Below, in pieces: positions 5,236 through 53,055 of a stretch of DNA of 64,000 nt; the first letter of the stretch is position 1; every line of letters starts with the position of its first letter. The notes under the pieces were generated by a model. That model saw nothing but the letters and a program-made list of their open reading frames with translations, did no database searches and had not been told where the DNA came from. Made by a program: the position numbers and the translations under genes. This DNA comes from Candidatus Aenigmatarchaeota archaeon. Its GTDB lineage: Archaea > Aenigmatarchaeota > Aenigmatarchaeia > CG10238-14 > SCSR01. Location of the stretch: assembly GCA_039000165.1 (NCBI GenBank), contig JAWBTW010000002.1, positions 3,245 through 67,244 on the forward strand, written 5' to 3'.

Positions 5236-5538
5236 ATGAAAGTTGTCAAATTTTTGAAAGGCTACTTTAAACCTTTACCATTATTGGGTGGACTTCTTGG
5301 GTCTGGAGCACTTTACTGGGCAGGTTTTTGTGTGGGCTTTTTGAAAGAAAGTATACCAAACCTTTTACCAAGTTTGGCTAGCGGAAACTATCATCAACTT
5401 TTTTATAATTCCTTTCAAACTGCTTACAACTACGCTGCCCAACTTGGCTTGATTGGGGGAATAAGCGGAACCATTCTCACAAGACATGGTTTGGATTATC
5501 TTGGCAAAAAAATTTGGAAGAAAAAGGAGGTGAAATAA
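5236..5538 (+). CDS. small membrane protein (Gly-rich TM segments)
   Basis: ORF with hydrophobic glycine-zipper-like stretches. First of four co-directional small genes. Confidence 0.35.
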   Translation: MKVVKFLKGYFKPLPLLGGLLGSGALYWAGFCVGFLKESIPNLLPSLASGNYHQLFYNSFQTAYNYAAQLGLIGGISGTILTRHGLDYLGKKIWKKKEVK

Positions 5539-5843
5539 TGGGAATAATTGATTGGTTAAAAACTCCTGAAGGAGCTTTTGTTATTGCTTTGCCTATAGGC
5601 TACTTTGGAGGGAAATGGCTAGAAGGAAAAATTACAGATTACTTACAAAAAAACAGAGAAGTGATGAGAGAAAATATAAAACAGGCTATAAGAGAAGGTT
5701 TAAGTGGTAACCCTGAACCAACCTATTCTTTAATCACGAAAGAAATCCAAAAATTGGAAAACAAACTTGAAAACTTGATTTTAAGCCAATACCAAGAGCT
5801 TAGCTCAAGAATTTCGAAACTTGAAAAATATAAGAAAGAGTGA
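5514..5843 (+). CDS. small membrane/coiled-coil protein
   Basis: One TM segment followed by a coiled-coil-like tail. Overlaps its neighbours. Confidence 0.3.
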   Translation: MEEKGGEIMGIIDWLKTPEGAFVIALPIGYFGGKWLEGKITDYLQKNREVMRENIKQAIREGLSGNPEPTYSLITKEIQKLENKLENLILSQYQELSSRISKLEKYKKE

Positions 5844-6205
5844 TAAAATTGAACAAAAACTTGAAAGATCTAGAAAAAACTCTTTATGTTTTTTCTAGGA
5901 TAAAGGAAATTTTGCCCCAAGTAATAAAAGAATTTGAAGAAGATAAGACAAACTATAACCTAACAGAAGATTTCAAGAAAAACTTTGACTTTTCTTTAGA
6001 TGGCTTTATTGATTTTTTCTTCCCGAATAGCGAAGTTAGCAATTATCTGAAAGCTATGAAAAATGTAGAATGGCCTATTGCCATAAAATTCCTTTCACAA
6101 TTTCTTGAAGGCTATCTAGAAGCTAAGTACAGCAAAGAAAAAACTGTAGAAGAAGTTGTTAAGGACTTTATTGTTAGAAAATTTTTTGATTACATAAAGG
6201 GATAA
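5840..6205 (+). CDS. hypothetical protein
   Basis: Start overlaps the upstream stop by 4 nt. No motif. Confidence 0.3.
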   Translation: MIKLNKNLKDLEKTLYVFSRIKEILPQVIKEFEEDKTNYNLTEDFKKNFDFSLDGFIDFFFPNSEVSNYLKAMKNVEWPIAIKFLSQFLEGYLEAKYSKEKTVEEVVKDFIVRKFFDYIKG

Positions 6206-6207
6206 AG

Positions 6208-6600
6208 TTGAATTTCTTTAAAGAGCTAAGTTACGAAGAAGAATTAATTAAGTTAAGATTAACCGATAACCTAATCAAATACTATCAAGAAAACCCAGAA
6301 AAAAGAGAAGAAGTAGTTAACAAACTTAAATCGCTTAGGAATAAAATAGTGAGCGATGACGAGATTAGAAGCTTCTACAAAGAAAACTTTCTAGCATGGA
6401 TAGAAAAAAATATTAAACGCTTAGAAAACGATAAAAACTTAAGCCTTTTAGAGTTTGGCATTCCGTTCTTCACTTTTCTCCTCGGTTTTGAAACAAGAGA
6501 TAAGCTTGGGAATTTTCTCGAGAAGTATAACAGAGAAATTGCTGCAGATGTTGCTCAAACTATAAAGGAAGAATTAGGTAGAAAGTATGGACAAAGGTGA
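6208..6600 (+). CDS. hypothetical protein
   Basis: Co-directional small ORF. No motif. Confidence 0.3.
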   Translation: MNFFKELSYEEELIKLRLTDNLIKYYQENPEKREEVVNKLKSLRNKIVSDDEIRSFYKENFLAWIEKNIKRLENDKNLSLLEFGIPFFTFLLGFETRDKLGNFLEKYNREIAADVAQTIKEELGRKYGQR

Positions 6601-7051
6601 AAAGTTCGAAATCTTAATCGAAAAACTCTACAGAAAAATGGGCTATAAAGTTGAGAGAAGAAAAGTTTTAAGAGGAATGAGCGGAGCTTATCATGAAATT
6701 GACTTATACGCTTACAAAAATTTTTTGAGCAAAAAAATAGCAATAGAGTGCAAATGGAGAGAAAACTTAGAAGTTGGTAAAAAAGAACTTGCGAACTTTT
6801 TCTTAGTTTTACAAGACACAAAAATTAAAGAAGGGCATATGGTAACAAACTCTTTCTACTCTAAACAAGCAAAAGTTTTGGCAAAAAGTTATGGGATAAA
6901 ACTTATTGATGGGGGAATGCTGAAAAAACTCTTGAAGAAATATTCGCTAGATGCTGAGCTTCCCTTACAAGACTTTTCCTTCACAAAAATTTTAGAGAGT
7001 TTAATTTTTCCTGCGATTGATTTTCTTAACTACAACGGAATAATCTACTAA
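6587..7051 (+). CDS. Mrr-like restriction-endonuclease-fold (PD-(D/E)xK) domain protein
   Basis: YHEIDLYAY...IAIECKWRE matches the Mrr_cat D...(E/D)xK pattern. A paralogous domain occurs in gene 19361. Confidence 0.5.
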   Translation: MDKGEKFEILIEKLYRKMGYKVERRKVLRGMSGAYHEIDLYAYKNFLSKKIAIECKWRENLEVGKKELANFFLVLQDTKIKEGHMVTNSFYSKQAKVLAKSYGIKLIDGGMLKKLLKKYSLDAELPLQDFSFTKILESLIFPAIDFLNYNGIIY

Positions 7052-19200: not shown

Positions 19201-19407
19201 ACTCTTCTTGGATTCTAAGAATAGAGGTCCTCTATAGCCACATTTTCTACATTCATAGACTTGACCTAACCAAGGCAAATAGTTTAACTCTTTACTTTTA
19301 CAAAAAGCACATCTCAAAACTCTTTTAAGCATATTTATTAGTTGAAAGTTAAAGATTAATTTGATGGTTTTCGTAGTAAAAGCTGATGGAAGAAAGGAAG
19401 AGTTCAA
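19195..19407 (-). CDS. small zinc-ribbon protein
   Basis: CAFCKS...CRKCGY four-Cys arrangement in 70 aa. Overlaps both neighbours, so uncertain. Confidence 0.3.
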   Translation of the reverse strand: MNSSFLPSAFTTKTIKLIFNFQLINMLKRVLRCAFCKSKELNYLPWLGQVYECRKCGYRGPLFLESKKSS

Positions 19408-20191
19408 AAAAGAAAAAGTTATAAGAACATGTTTAAGGATGGGAGCTTCTCAAGAACAGGCAGAAATAATAGCTAGAGAAATCGAGAAAAGAATCCGTGA
19501 AGAAATAGAAACAAGAAAAATCCTTAAGATGATTTTCAAGTTCTTACAAAAATTTAAACCAGAAATAAAGCATCAAATAGACTTGAGAGAGGCTATTTCT
19601 CTACTTAATCCTAAACCCGATTTTGAGAGGTTTGTTCAACTTCTTTTAAAAGAGCACGGTTATGAAGTTATTCCAAATCAAATAGTTGAAGGATATTGCG
19701 TTGACCATGAAATTGATGCTATAGCAAAAAGAGACGGTCAAACATTCTTAGTTGAGATTAAACATCATGTTAACCACCATGGTTACACTGGAAAAGATGT
19801 TTTTCTTGAGGCCCAAGCTATTCTTGAAGATTTGAAAGAAGGAAGAAAAGTAGGCAAAAATTCTTTAGATTTAACCAAAATTTTAATAGTTTGCAATACT
19901 AAATTTTCTGACCATGCAAAAAAGTACGCTTTATGCAAAGGGATTGATTTTATAGGCTGGAATTATCCAGAAGAAAAAGGCCTTGAAAGGCTTATAGAAG
20001 AGAAAAAACTTTATCCTATAACCATTCTGAAAGGCCTGGATGAAAGGACAAAAGAAAAAATAACAAACGCAGGAATAATTTTGCTCAAACAACTCATTGA
20101 AGAAAGAATAGAAGAGCTTAGAAATAAAACAAAAATACCCAAGAAAAAATTGCTAGTTTTAAGACAGAAAGCTAAGGAAATCTTAACTTGA
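19361..20191 (+). CDS. ATP-cone domain fused to Mrr-like restriction-endonuclease-fold domain
   Basis: N-terminal ATP-cone pattern (VVKADGRKEEFKKEKVIRTCLRMGASQEQAEIIAREIEKRI) followed by GYCVDHEIDAIAKRDGQTFLVEIKHH, a PD-(D/E)xK pattern. Confidence 0.55.
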   Translation: MMVFVVKADGRKEEFKKEKVIRTCLRMGASQEQAEIIAREIEKRIREEIETRKILKMIFKFLQKFKPEIKHQIDLREAISLLNPKPDFERFVQLLLKEHGYEVIPNQIVEGYCVDHEIDAIAKRDGQTFLVEIKHHVNHHGYTGKDVFLEAQAILEDLKEGRKVGKNSLDLTKILIVCNTKFSDHAKKYALCKGIDFIGWNYPEEKGLERLIEEKKLYPITILKGLDERTKEKITNAGIILLKQLIEERIEELRNKTKIPKKKLLVLRQKAKEILT

Positions 20192-32826: not shown

Positions 32827-32910
32827 GGGCTCGTCCGGTAACCTGGATAGCCGACTGCGCTTCGGTTTTGAGGAAACGCAGTAGTGAGGGTTCAAATCCC
32901 TCCGAGCCCA
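32827..32910 (+). tRNA. tRNA-Arg (anticodon UCG) with a 10-nt intron at 37/38
   Basis: Acceptor GGGCUCG/CGAGCCC, T-arm GAGGG-UUCAAAU-CCCUC, anticodon stem CUGCG/CGCAG enclosing 17 nt. Exon CUUC pairs with intron GAGG, leaving an AAA bulge and a 6-nt loop (BHL). The intron is at 32866-32875. Confidence 0.75.
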
Positions 32911-38739: not shown

Positions 38740-39330
38740 ATGGCAACAAAACTTTTAATACCTAGAGAGCAATATTTGGCATCTGGAATTCATATAGGAA
38801 TGAAGCAAAAGACTAAGGATATGAAGGAGTTTATATACAAAATAAGAGAAGATGGTCTATGCATTCTAAACCTAAAAAAGGTTGATGAAAGGATAAGAGT
38901 TGCCGCAAAATTTCTAGCCAGGCATAGAAAAATTCTTGTAGTAAGCAGAAAATCTGCAGTCCAAGAAGGAATAAAGAAGTTTGCAGAAATTATAGGAGCA
39001 AAAGCCATTGTTGGAAGGTTCATGCCAGGAACTTTAACGAACCCTTCTTACAAAGAATACTATGAAGCAGAGGTTGTTTTTATTTTTGACCCTTTGATAG
39101 ACTATCAAGCTTTGAAAGAAGCAGTAAAGGCAAGAATTCCTGTAGTTGCTCTTTGTGACACTATAAACGAAACTAAGAATATTGACTTAGTAGTTCCTGC
39201 TAACAACAAAGGGAAGAAGGCCTTGGCAACTATTCTTTGGCTTTTGGCAAGAGAAATACTCAAAGAAAGGAAGGAGATAAAAGCTGACTCAGAGTTTACT
39301 TACAAAGTTGAGGATTTTGCCAAAGCTTAA
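38740..39330 (+). CDS. rps2: 30S ribosomal protein S2 (uS2)
   Basis: LLIPREQYLASGIHIGMKQKTKDMKEFIYKIREDGLCILNL is the archaeal uS2 N-terminus. 196 aa. Confidence 0.9.
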   Translation: MATKLLIPREQYLASGIHIGMKQKTKDMKEFIYKIREDGLCILNLKKVDERIRVAAKFLARHRKILVVSRKSAVQEGIKKFAEIIGAKAIVGRFMPGTLTNPSYKEYYEAEVVFIFDPLIDYQALKEAVKARIPVVALCDTINETKNIDLVVPANNKGKKALATILWLLAREILKERKEIKADSEFTYKVEDFAKA

Positions 39331-40040
39331 ACTCTTAGAACTTCTATCCCGTTTTCTCTTATAACAAAAGGGTGAATCAAAGTAGAATGCTTGCTTCTTC
39401 TCATCTTTCTTATGGTCAAAGTTCTTTGATACTCTTTTGCGATATAAACAAAATCAAGCTTAATTATAGTATCGACAACAAATTCTAGAAATTGCAACCT
39501 GCTTACTCCTGCTTCTGACTCTGGAACTTCTGAGATAAAAATTGTGGTCACACCTCTTTCTTTTAAAGCATCTACTAGCGAAACAACTTCAGAGCGTATC
39601 ATATATTTATCTTTAAACATCATCTCTATTGCTGAGATGGAATCTATAACAAGTCTTTTCGCCTTAATTTTATCCACAGCCTCAAGAATTTTTTGAACTA
39701 TTTGATAAAACCCCATTGAAAGAACTTCCTTTTTCTCCACAGGATGCCAAACCCTTTTTATTCTTAAAGGAAGCCATAAAAGCTTGTTCTTTTTTTCAAA
39801 AGGCTCTAAATCCCAGCCAAAAGTTTCTTCTATATCTTTTTTTATATCCTCGACTCTCTCCTCAAAAGTTACGTAGACTGCAGGCTCGTTTTTTAGCAAG
39901 CCATCGTACAAAAATTGAACTGAAAAAAGAGTTTTACCGCTTCCTGTTTTTCCACTAACCATTATAGAAGAAGAGCGAATAAAGCCTCCTCCCATTAGTT
40001 CGTCCAAACCTTTAATTCCTGAGGAAACTCTTTCTGCCAT
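39327..40040 (-). CDS. KaiC-like RecA-superfamily ATPase
   Basis: GIKGLDELMGGGFIRSSSIMVSGKTGSGKT Walker A plus a KaiC/RadB-like core. Single domain, 237 aa. Confidence 0.75.
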   Translation of the reverse strand: MAERVSSGIKGLDELMGGGFIRSSSIMVSGKTGSGKTLFSVQFLYDGLLKNEPAVYVTFEERVEDIKKDIEETFGWDLEPFEKKNKLLWLPLRIKRVWHPVEKKEVLSMGFYQIVQKILEAVDKIKAKRLVIDSISAIEMMFKDKYMIRSEVVSLVDALKERGVTTIFISEVPESEAGVSRLQFLEFVVDTIIKLDFVYIAKEYQRTLTIRKMRRSKHSTLIHPFVIRENGIEVLRV

Positions 40041-40118
40041 AATATTAATTTCTTTTTCCTTTCTCTTATTTTTAAACTAAAAGAAAAATTTATAAGTTGT
40101 TGGGCTAATAAAAATATA

Positions 40119-40376
40119 GGCGAGCTAGCCAGGTAGCTTCGGCTTTGCATCAAAGCAAAGCTGAGGAAGTTCCCTCCATCCCTTAAGGTGCTGCGCAAGC
40201 AGCAGGCTGAGAAGCCTCTGCCAGAATCAGAAACGAGACCTTTTAGCTTCGCTAACCATGATGCGAAAGCTGAGTTGGGGCTAAAAGGATGAAACGGTCT
40301 GGCAGGCCTGGGATGCAAGTTTGAAACGCTTAGACAAATGCTACCAAAACATAAGAGGGGCTATGGCTAGCACGCC
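40119..40376 (+). ncRNA. rnpB: candidate RNase P RNA (minimal form)
   Basis: GC-rich noncoding island. The 5'/3' ends pair (GGCGAGCUAGCC / GGCUAGCACGCC, P1), followed by a P2-like strand and a P3 hairpin GCUUUGC-AUCAAA-GCAAAGC. Then comes a CR-I-like GAGGAAGUUCCCUCCAU, a GNRA-capped hairpin UGCUGC-GCAA-GCAGCA, and a CR-V-like CAGAAnC region near the 3' side. Confidence 0.5.
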
Positions 40377-40466
40377 TTTCTTTTTTCAATTTTAAAAAGA
40401 AAAAAAGCTAAAAATTTTTAAATTCTTTAAAAAACCTTTTTAAACTCATTTTTCCTACTCATTTTA

Positions 40467-41123
40467 ATGAGTCTTTCGATAATGGGAATACTTTACGATT
40501 TTGACGGAACCATAGTAAAATCAGATAAGTTTATAAGAGAAACTTATTACGAGATTTGTAAAGAAATGGGAATAAAACCTAGCTTGAGTTACAGAATGTT
40601 GCAACGCTTACACTATGACTGGAAAAAATTTTTGAGAAGGCAAAAAATAGATCCAGAAAAAGCAGAAGAAGCTTATAAAAATAAAACTGATAAAATAAAA
40701 GTCATACCAGAAGTGAAAAAGGTTCTGAAGTACAATAAAAAACATGGAAAAATTCAAGGTATAGTAACTCATTCTCCAAGAAGTGCTGTTGAGGAAATAG
40801 CCAGAAAAAATAAAATTGAAGAGTATATAGACGGAATGATAACTTGGGATGAAATAGAGGAAAGAAACTTAAGACCAAAACCTGAGCCTGATGCTTTGGT
40901 TTGCTTGGCAAGAGACTTAAATTTAGAAACAAAAAAATGTCTTTATGTGGGAAACAGCAAGGAAGATATTATCGCTGGAAAAAGGGCTGGCATGTTAACC
41001 TTAGGGTTTTGTTGTGAACGTGATTTAAGAGTTATAGCAAGATTAAGAGCAGCAAACCCGTACTTTGGTGTTATAACTTCGCCTCAACATCTTTATATAT
41101 ATTTCCAACGTCTAATTTTTTAG
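40467..41123 (+). CDS. HAD-superfamily hydrolase (phosphoglycolate phosphatase-like)
   Basis: Motif I LYDFDGTIV, motif II VTHS, motif IV LYVGNSKEDIIAGKRAG. Confidence 0.7.
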   Translation: MSLSIMGILYDFDGTIVKSDKFIRETYYEICKEMGIKPSLSYRMLQRLHYDWKKFLRRQKIDPEKAEEAYKNKTDKIKVIPEVKKVLKYNKKHGKIQGIVTHSPRSAVEEIARKNKIEEYIDGMITWDEIEERNLRPKPEPDALVCLARDLNLETKKCLYVGNSKEDIIAGKRAGMLTLGFCCERDLRVIARLRAANPYFGVITSPQHLYIYFQRLIF

Positions 41124-52040: not shown

Positions 52041-52346
52041 TTATTCCATCTTTTTCCCTTCTTTATATCCTCTTAAAAGCTTCTCCATCTCTTTTTCATA
52101 TTCTTTTCTAAGCTCAGAAATCTTGCCCAAATAATCTAGCGTTAAAGACCTTATTTTTTCCTGAGCTTCGCTTCTACCTTCTAAAAACTCCCTAAACAAA
52201 GAATAAGCTATGTTACCAGCCAGAAGAGAAGAAATCAGACTTTCCCAATTCCTCACGTAATCCAAATCCTTCTTTATTTCTTCAAAACTTCTCATACTTT
52301 TAAAATAAAGAATAAATTTTAAAAAACTATTCTTTCTTAACAACAA
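52041..52346 (-). CDS. hypothetical small protein
   Basis: 101-aa ORF, overlapping the upstream KaiC-like gene end by 20 nt. Confidence 0.3.
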   Translation of the reverse strand: MLLRKNSFLKFILYFKSMRSFEEIKKDLDYVRNWESLISSLLAGNIAYSLFREFLEGRSEAQEKIRSLTLDYLGKISELRKEYEKEMEKLLRGYKEGKKME

Positions 52347-53055
52347 TTCCTTTATTAGTAATTTCTATGGGATAAATGTCAGTTCCATGCTTAGTGTGAC
52401 GCATCTTTCTTATAAGCAAGCTTCTTGGTGTTCCTCCTCCTGTAAATTCCAAATAATGCAAAACTATTACTGCATCTACTATAAATTCCTCAAAACCAAA
52501 TCTTGATAAGGCTTTTGTTGCTTCTGGTATCTCTCCAACTATCAAGCTTGTTACTCCATACTGTTTTAACCTCATTATTAGCTCGAAAACCTTTGCCCTT
52601 AGCTCAGTAGGGTCAGAAGCCTTTGCAGCAAAAGCTACCAAGCTTAAACCATCTAGAACAAAACGAGTAGCGTTTACTTCCTTTATCCTCTTAAAAATTT
52701 CATAATCCAAATCATCACAAGATTTAGGAAAAACATACTCTATTATACATCTTCCTTGTTGAATGTAAGGCCTGAAGTCCATCCCAAACTGCAAAGCTTG
52801 CGAGATTATATCTTCTGCTGGCTCTTCCAAGGTTATGTAAACTACATTTTCACCCTTTTGCAAGCCATGCCAAATGTATTGAGTACAAAAAATCGTTTTT
52901 CCTGTTCCTGTTTCTCCTGCTATCAAAACTGCTGAGCCTTTAACAAAACCTCCTTCTATTAGTCTATCCAAACCAGGAATTCCTGTTTCTACCCTTTCAG
53001 GTTTTCCTTCCTCTTTTGGTTTTTCAGAAACTTTTTTCATCTTTTTCTTCATCAA
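52327..53055 (-). CDS. KaiC-like RecA-superfamily ATPase (second copy)
   Basis: GIPGLDRLIEGGFVKGSAVLIAGETGTGKT Walker A plus a KaiC-like core. 242 aa. Confidence 0.75.
   Translation of the reverse strand: MMKKKMKKVSEKPKEEGKPERVETGIPGLDRLIEGGFVKGSAVLIAGETGTGKTIFCTQYIWHGLQKGENVVYITLEEPAEDIISQALQFGMDFRPYIQQGRCIIEYVFPKSCDDLDYEIFKRIKEVNATRFVLDGLSLVAFAAKASDPTELRAKVFELIMRLKQYGVTSLIVGEIPEATKALSRFGFEEFIVDAVIVLHYLEFTGGGTPRSLLIRKMRHTKHGTDIYPIEITNKGIVVKKE

Follow-up and report, generated by a model that had tools for sequence, protein, structure and literature searches.

Positions 40120-40375 (plus strand) of the 64,000-nucleotide (nt) stretch of archaeal DNA analysed here, henceforth the window, encode, with a probability that we put at roughly 0.93, the RNA subunit of RNase P (RPR) of a DPANN, Aenigmatarchaeota-like host, an RNA of structural type M with helix P8 that would function as part of a ribonucleoprotein. 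The gene is an ordinary, conserved housekeeping gene that belongs to a known family and to a structural variant already on record; what is new about it is only the host lineage. Its location and typing account for what had appeared to be a non-coding island.

An RNase P RNA gene in a GC-rich interval

A scan of the whole window with Rfam 15 (cmscan) matched 40120-40375 on the plus strand, 256 nt in all, to the archaeal RNase P RNA family RF00373 (RNaseP_arch), with a score of 135.8 bits (gathering score 84) and an E-value of 6e-38. The match is full-length, covering model positions 1-288 of 288. The MFE of the segment is -104.9 kcal/mol, versus -81.1 +/- 5.0 for shuffled sequences (z = -4.74), and none of the 200 shuffles was as stable.

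The initial annotation had described the locus as a GC-rich island lying between a KaiC-like gene and a HAD hydrolase gene, a description that proved accurate. The GC content in 200-nt windows over 40100-40399 is 0.46-0.50, as opposed to 0.26-0.38 in the flanks, and reaches 0.52 in the RPR itself. Pfam identifies a KaiC-family ATPase gene on one side (39327-40040, minus strand; PF06745) and a HAD hydrolase gene on the other (40467-41123, plus strand; PF00702/PF13419). In the two NCBI MAG contigs and the two Logan contigs that carry an identical locus, the interval has no gene call. The locus is also present in SRR21619498 and SRR21619490. The RPR sequence is the same in four independent assemblies, and the nearby gene for ribosomal protein S2 is identical in GCA_044343425.1 and GCA_039091995.1. 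A second KaiC-family ATPase gene lies at 52327-53055 (minus strand). Elsewhere, the window contains two Mrr_cat restriction-endonuclease-like genes, at 6587-7051 and 19361-20191 (both plus strand); the second additionally carries an ATP-cone and an AF1548-like C-terminal domain, and upstream of the first lie four small co-directional open reading frames (ORFs; 5236-6600) with no Pfam match.

The RPR is flanked by putative transcription signals. A TATA box (TTTATAA, 40089-40095, plus strand), preceded by an A-rich, BRE-like stretch, is centred about 28 nt 5′ of the RPR start, and a T-run (TTTCTTTTTT, 40377-40386, plus strand), a signal of the archaeal terminator type, directly follows P1. In most of 20 relatives the RPR has a TTTATAA/TTTAAAT box at the same upstream distance and a T-rich run at its 3′ side. 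From their sequence and position, these elements would constitute the promoter and the terminator of an independent transcription unit. The dinucleotides AG and CU that respectively precede and follow the Rfam boundaries (..AG/G...C/CU..) are conserved in relatives and can lengthen P1 by two pairs, so that the transcript may begin at 40118 or 40119, in keeping with the limits first assigned to the interval (40119-40376), and may include G40119/A40118 and C40376/U40377.

Helices and conserved regions

The RPR and its relatives (18 sequences) were aligned with MAFFT and folded with RNAalifold without prior assumptions. The program recovers P1, P3, P4, P5, P9, P10/11 and P12, with compensatory changes in 44 of 63 pairs. 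The alignment was then annotated with the complete canonical structure, P4 being entered as a pseudoknot, and the pairs were counted. Standard pairs fill 94.2% of the pair cells, compared with 35-41% after displacement of the 3′ partners by 1-3 columns, and 60 of the 79 pairs show compensatory change; none of 500 shuffles matched the observed pairing and compensation values. Covariation or pairing backs every helix; this applies also to P2, to P7, to P8 in the sequences that have it and to the closing pairs of the tiny P15. The columns of CR-I to CR-V are almost entirely invariant.

Two helices proposed by RNAalifold were rejected. An extension of P3 (columns 18-20 with 45-47) makes use of CR-I and of the P2 strand, which covaries with GCUACC. 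An AAG/CUU helix enclosing the P15 stub (columns 208-210 with 223-225) involves six columns that are all invariant; it was discarded because the same columns are J5/15 and CR-IV, which are kept in type A RNAs with the full P15-P17 between them.

The elements are described here in 5′ to 3′ order, all on the plus strand. P1 pairs 40120-40130 with 40365-40375, from G40120-C40375 to C40130-G40365, through ten Watson-Crick pairs (seven of them compensatory in relatives) and one A-A mismatch. G40119-C40376 can add one further pair, which makes up the twelve positions of the 12-bp P1-like terminal helix recognised in the initial annotation. The 5′ strand of P2 (GGUAGC, 40132-40137) pairs with GCUACC (40340-40345) in 99% of cells, two pairs being compensatory. 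The P3 hairpin (40140-40163) has 9 bp, seven of them compensatory, and a loop of sequence AUCAAA. It leads into CR-I, GAGGAAGUUCC (40163-40173), which, extended to include the 5′ strand of P4, reads GAGGAAGUUCCCUC (40163-40176) and consists of invariant columns. The succession P1-P2-P3-CR-I, with the P3 hairpin followed by GAGGAAGUUCC, had thus been read correctly and is backed by covariation.

P4 is a pseudoknot in which 40168-40176 pair with the CR-V strand, ACAUAAGAGGGGCUAU (40349-40364). Its eight pairs are formed in 100% of cells, four with compensatory changes. U40171 is invariant and is the counterpart of the bulged U that is universally conserved in P4; the bulge was placed at the next U because the neighbouring column pairs (51/257; UG in 16 sequences, CG in two). 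The long-range CR-I/CR-V helix with a bulged U that characterises RNase P RNA is therefore present. CR-V reads ACAUAA here as against the usual ACAGAA, at a position where relatives have G, A or U.

The 5′ strands of P5 (CAUCCC) and P7 (AGGU), joined by J5/7 (UUA), occupy 40177-40189; their partners, GCCU and GGGAUG, lie at 40306-40315. P5 is paired in 100% of cells with two compensatory pairs, and P7 in 81-83% with three. The P8 hairpin (GCUGC-GCAA-GCAGC, 40190-40203) has 5 bp, occupies the P8 columns of RF00373 and shows compensatory changes at all five pairs in the sequences that have the helix. It is followed by P9 (AGGCU-GAGA-AGCCU, 40204-40217), with a conserved GNRA loop, 100% pairing and four of five pairs compensatory. 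The single GNRA hairpin noted originally is thus one of two, the loops being GCAA in P8 and GAGA in P9. The 5′ strand of P10/11, CUGCCAGA (40218-40225), forms eight contiguous, uninterrupted pairs with UCUGGCAG (40298-40305), all eight of them compensatory. CR-II (J11/12) is AUCAGAAACGAG (40226-40237), in which nearly all columns are invariant and which aligns to ACAGAAACGA of RF00373. The initial annotation had taken the CAGAAnC motif of this element for a CR-V-like sequence; it is CR-II, and the true CR-V, the 3′ strand of P4, lies farther downstream.

P12 (40239-40288) has a proximal stem of 12 bp, all compensatory, and is flanked on its 3′ side by CR-III (J12/11), AUGAAACGG (40289-40297), of which UGAAACGG is invariant and the residue before it is A or G. 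In P9, P10/11 and P12 pairing stands at 93-100%, and 24 of the 25 pairs of these helices are compensatory. The specificity domain of an RNase P RNA, with its P7-P10 junction and with CR-II and CR-III on either side of P12, is therefore present. J5/15 (GCAAG, 40315-40319) precedes the P15 stub (GUU-UGA-AAC, 40319-40327), a 9-nt mini-hairpin of 3 bp with a 3-nt loop whose closing pairs covary (column 212/220: CG in 14 sequences, UA in three, GC in one). CR-IV (J15/2) is CGCUUAGACAAAU (40327-40339), of which CGCUUAG and AAUGCU are invariant.

Above its stem, P12 contains a 3-nt bulge (GCU), a 3-bp helix (AAC/GUU), a second 3-nt bulge (CAU), tandem G-A/A-G pairs (G40260-A40273 and A40261-G40272) and a GC-GAAA-GC cap. 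This layout matches the double K-turn of P12 that binds L7Ae in euryarchaeal RPRs (PMC5499556), and the motif CUAAC-NAUGA...UGAGUUG is kept in most relatives. The distal K-turn is of canonical form; in the proximal one, sheared G-A pairs are missing at the expected positions, which makes the stoichiometry of L7Ae uncertain. By analogy, the module is presumed to be an L7Ae site.

The prevalence of compensatory substitutions indicates purifying selection on the structure of the RPR, and so bears on the proposal that the gene is a decaying relic, a protein-only RNase P (HARP) having assumed the maturation of tRNA 5′ ends and the RNA having lost its function. RNase P RNA has been lost from some reduced archaea, and HARP is present in some archaea; moreover, P8 and P12 are progressively lost among relatives (see below), and none of the five RNase P protein (RPP) genes was found among 40 scanned ORFs of the window (78-291 aa, Pfam) or among the annotated genes around the locus. 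Yet the positions of the catalytic core are all intact and invariant across relatives, the substitutions overwhelmingly preserve pairing, and the promoter and terminator signals are conserved. We consider it very unlikely that the RPR is a relic.

A type M RNA with P8

The traits of type M RNAs are defined in PMC4919922 and PMC1874661. The L15/P16/P17 module, about 37 nt in type A RNAs, is missing from the window RPR, where the [37] insert of RF00373 is replaced by [1]. Only 7 nt separate GCAAG from CGCUUAG (GCAAG-UUUGAAA-CGCUUAG), as against about 45 nt in RF00373, leaving room for nothing but a hairpin of 3 bp with a 3-nt loop. The P6 pseudoknot cannot form, since there is no L17 and J5/7 is just UUA, so that no strands are available to pair. 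The RNA therefore lacks L15, P16 and P17, in whose place stands the 9-nt hairpin, and lacks P6; its P10/11 is elongated and free of interruptions, which is likewise a type M trait (PMC1874661).

One feature departs from type M in the strict sense. Absence of P8 has been called the most significant feature of the type (PMC1874661), yet the window RPR has a 5-bp, covarying P8. The conflict is resolved by the variant of type M described in Archaeoglobus profundus, A. veneficus and Ferroglobus placidus (Chan et al. 2012, PMC3579882), in which a typical P8 coexists with the absence of L15, P16, P17 and P6. The window RPR shows exactly this combination and is an instance of the already described, P8-retaining variant. 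The presence of P8 might also suggest an ordinary type A RNA, with L15, P16/P17 and P6, of which the 3′ part had been misread. This is highly improbable given the short distance between GCAAG and CGCUUAG, the want of any partner for P6 and the uninterrupted P10/11, and the assignment to type M with P8 stands.

The tRNA genes agree with this assignment. The window has four tRNA genes (Val, Ser and Glu, and one with an intron, at 32827-32910), all without an encoded CCA, consistent with the loss of the CCA-binding L15 loop from the RPR. Absence of tRNA-encoded CCA is known to correlate with absence of the CCA-pairing L15 loop (PMC4919922). The intron-containing gene (plus strand; Rfam score 46.6 bits) has a 13-nt insertion in the anticodon loop and is the one missed by ARAGORN, which reports the other three.

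Other readings of the interval

The initial annotation had named the archaeal SRP (7S) RNA as the main alternative to RNase P RNA and had proposed an Infernal/Rfam comparison to decide between them. As reported above, RF00373 scores well above its threshold; in contrast, no SRP family matches the window at gathering thresholds or the region 39900-40600 in a permissive Rfam scan (E<=10), which returned nothing notable beyond RF00373, and the segment has no covariance-model match to archaeal SRP RNA (RF01857). What an SRP RNA would share with the segment is generic, namely a GC-rich, structured RNA of about 260 nt in an AT-rich archaeal genome, whereas the five conserved regions of RNase P RNA are all present and the P4 pseudoknot covaries. 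The SRP reading can be set aside with near certainty in favour of RNase P RNA.

A 107-aa ORF on the minus strand (39995-40318), which runs antisense over most of the RPR gene and could misguide automatic gene callers, exists mechanically, but it is not called in the two NCBI MAGs or the two Logan contigs, overlaps the start of the KaiC-like gene and lies opposite an RNA whose substitutions obey base-pairing rather than codon logic, so that a protein-coding interval is extremely improbable and the ORF almost certainly spurious.

Relatives and reduction across DPANN

The search for relatives of the RPR covered each GTDB species by a single genome and used a pattern composed of J5/15, CR-IV and CR-V that allowed only a short P15. 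The signature occurs at no fewer than 120 genome loci, that is, at least 120; as the pattern is biased towards short-P15 forms, such counts yield neither frequencies nor the fraction of DPANN archaea that have type A RNAs. The labels among the matches listed comprise about 63 Micrarchaeota, seven Aenigmatarchaeota, three Iainarchaeota, two Woesearchaeota, one Altiarchaeota, three Archaeoglobales/Archaeoglobaceae, two Methanolliviera, five Thermoplasmata with longer inserts of 16-24 nt, and a few chance bacterial matches. The genome to which the window belongs was not among the matches listed. Among the matches listed, those closest to the window RPR by nhmmer come from "uncultured archaeon" MAGs (L084, L111, L010 and L071) and from Candidatus Aenigmatarchaeota MAGs (L015, L026, L050, L047, L099 and L045).

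Gene order points in the same direction. The succession aIF2-alpha-PAC2-S2-RPR is shared with Aenigmatarchaeota MAGs L047 and L050 and also with L024 and L077; relative to these four, the KaiC-like gene at 39327-40040 is an insertion between S2 and the RPR. Identity to the window genes is 73% for PAC2 and 70% for S2 (L047/L050) and 63% for aIF2-alpha (L047). From these sequence comparisons we infer that the host is an Aenigmatarchaeota-like DPANN archaeon.

The relatives differ in the number of hairpins between P7 and P10. Forms with P9 only have a CR-I to CR-II spacing of 52-55 nt in Micrarchaeota and of 54 nt in L099 and L045; in forms with both P8 and P9 it is 63-66 nt in the window and its nearest relatives and 69-71 nt in Archaeoglobaceae. 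The Micrarchaeota-labelled RPRs apparently have the single P9 hairpin. Within Aenigmatarchaeota-labelled MAGs P8 is polymorphic, being absent in L099:4809-5057(-) and L045:5697-5944(-), only 3 bp long in L047:3979-4229(+) and L050:5918-6168(-), and 5 bp long in the window and its nearest relatives. This variation parallels the presence or absence of P8 reported within Archaeoglobaceae.

Reduction goes further in a group of DPANN MAG RPRs of about 210-230 nt in which P12 is a hairpin of 3-4 bp, with CR-II and CR-III kept. They are L077:3629-3845(-) (217 nt, 92.7 bits), L102:2766-2975(+) (210 nt, 90 bits), L019:4699-4908(-) (210 nt, 75.6 bits), L073:2-197(+) (64.9 bits, cut by the contig end) and L036:7244-7474(+), the scores of L019 and L073 lying under the RF00373 gathering score of 84. 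These RNAs also have the P15 stub and a reduced or absent P8; a P12 of this size leaves no K-turn or L7Ae site. L077 shares synteny with the window (PAC2 72% identical), so that the loss of P12 is a recent one. The L019 contig (CAYZYZ010000047.1) sits in a bin titled "Candidatus Saccharibacteria bacterium", its RPR being of the archaeal type (RF00373, E 2.4e-19); it is probably a mis-binned DPANN contig.

We tentatively suggest that the window RPR is one member of a large, undescribed DPANN radiation of type M-like RPRs, a proposal that we hold as possible rather than probable. No paper linking RNase P RNA with these DPANN phyla was found in the literature searched, which is weak evidence of absence. 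Should such a radiation exist, L15, P16, P17 and P6 would have been lost independently of Methanococcales and Archaeoglobales, or their loss would be ancestral to much of DPANN. A single clade, the Aenigmatarchaeota-like one, would then offer a series in which P8 is intact (window), shortened (L047 and L050) or lost (L099 and L045) and P12 is lost as well (L077 and L019; about 210 nt), some of the reduced forms falling below the Rfam threshold. Recurrent loss would, in that case, account better for the patchy occurrence of P8 than would the lateral transfer put forward for A. fulgidus. DPANN variants with P8 and P12 present or absent could serve to test how far the RNA can be trimmed once proteins bind the substrate, the P12-less relatives could show whether L7Ae stays an RNase P subunit, and the whole set could be used to ask how many RPR genes covariance models miss in reduced genomes. 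The wider interest of a type M architecture across DPANN is modest.

Proposed function and protein partners

By homology, the RPR would be the catalytic subunit of a ribonucleoprotein RNase P that removes the 5′ leaders of pre-tRNAs. It would be read from its own TATA/BRE promoter up to the T-run, and it adopts the canonical two-domain fold, as homology and covariation show. The catalytic (C) domain, comprising P1-P5, the P4 pseudoknot with its bulged U, J5/15, CR-IV and CR-V, is predicted to carry the active site and would place the metal ions by which the bond at tRNA position +1 is hydrolysed. The specificity (S) domain, formed by the P7-P8-P9-P10/11 cruciform, CR-II, CR-III and P12, would recognise the T/D-loop elbow of the pre-tRNA. 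Replacement of L15/P16/P17/P6 by the 3-bp P15 stub means that the RNA cannot pair with a 3′-RCCA. Activity of type M RNAs requires their proteins or a tethered substrate (PMC5499556); the same protein dependence is accordingly expected of the window RPR, which would be inactive alone. The expected proteins are Pop5-Rpp30 on the C domain, Rpp21-Rpp29 on the S domain and L7Ae on the P12 K-turn, presumably encoded elsewhere in the genome.

Comparison with known RNase P RNAs

The closest counterpart is the variant of Archaeoglobaceae, which has the same helices (P1-P5, P7, P8, P9, uninterrupted P10/11, P12 and a short P15) and likewise lacks L15, P16, P17 and P6. The RPRs of two Archaeoglobaceae MAGs, L016 and L012, score 194 and 186.5 bits with RF00373, and their filled and empty model columns are patterned as in the window RPR, with P8 filled. 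The two sets differ in several respects: the host of the window RPR is a DPANN (Aenigmatarchaeota-like) archaeon; sequence similarity is low, nhmmer giving only a partial 27-bit match to L012; the P15 stub of the window RPR is even shorter (3 bp and 3 nt) and its P3 longer (9 bp); and its GC content is 52%, versus 59-64% in Archaeoglobaceae. In the literature examined, type M RPRs are reported only from Methanococcales and Archaeoglobaceae.

With the classical type M RNAs of Methanococcales and A. fulgidus the window RPR shares the absence of L15, P16, P17 and P6, the elongated, uninterrupted P10/11, the P12 K-turn module, the CCA-less tRNA genes and the expected dependence on proteins (PMC1874661, PMC4919922, PMC5499556). 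It differs from them in having P8, which its close relatives L099 and L045 do not have. With type A (Pyrococcus, Methanothermobacter) it has in common the RF00373 family, CR-I to CR-V and the P7-P10 four-way junction including P8; type A RNAs have in addition the L15 internal loop, P16, P17 and the P6 pseudoknot (with the KT1 site of L7Ae), and their P10/11 is interrupted.

The RNAs of type T (Thermoproteaceae), about 200 nt long, are likewise shortened archaeal RPRs. They lack most of the specificity domain and escape detection by RF00373, whereas the window RPR has a complete S domain and is found by that model (PMC3579882). The initial annotation had seen in the segment a reduced form of roughly 260 nt, of interest for minimal RNase P. 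The RNA is indeed a shortened RPR, but of the known type M with P8 rather than a new minimal RNase P, a notion weakened by the completeness of its specificity domain and by the existence of shorter natural forms, some of them (the P12-less RNAs of about 210 nt) among its own relatives. The type T RNAs of Thermoproteaceae have undergone far greater reduction.
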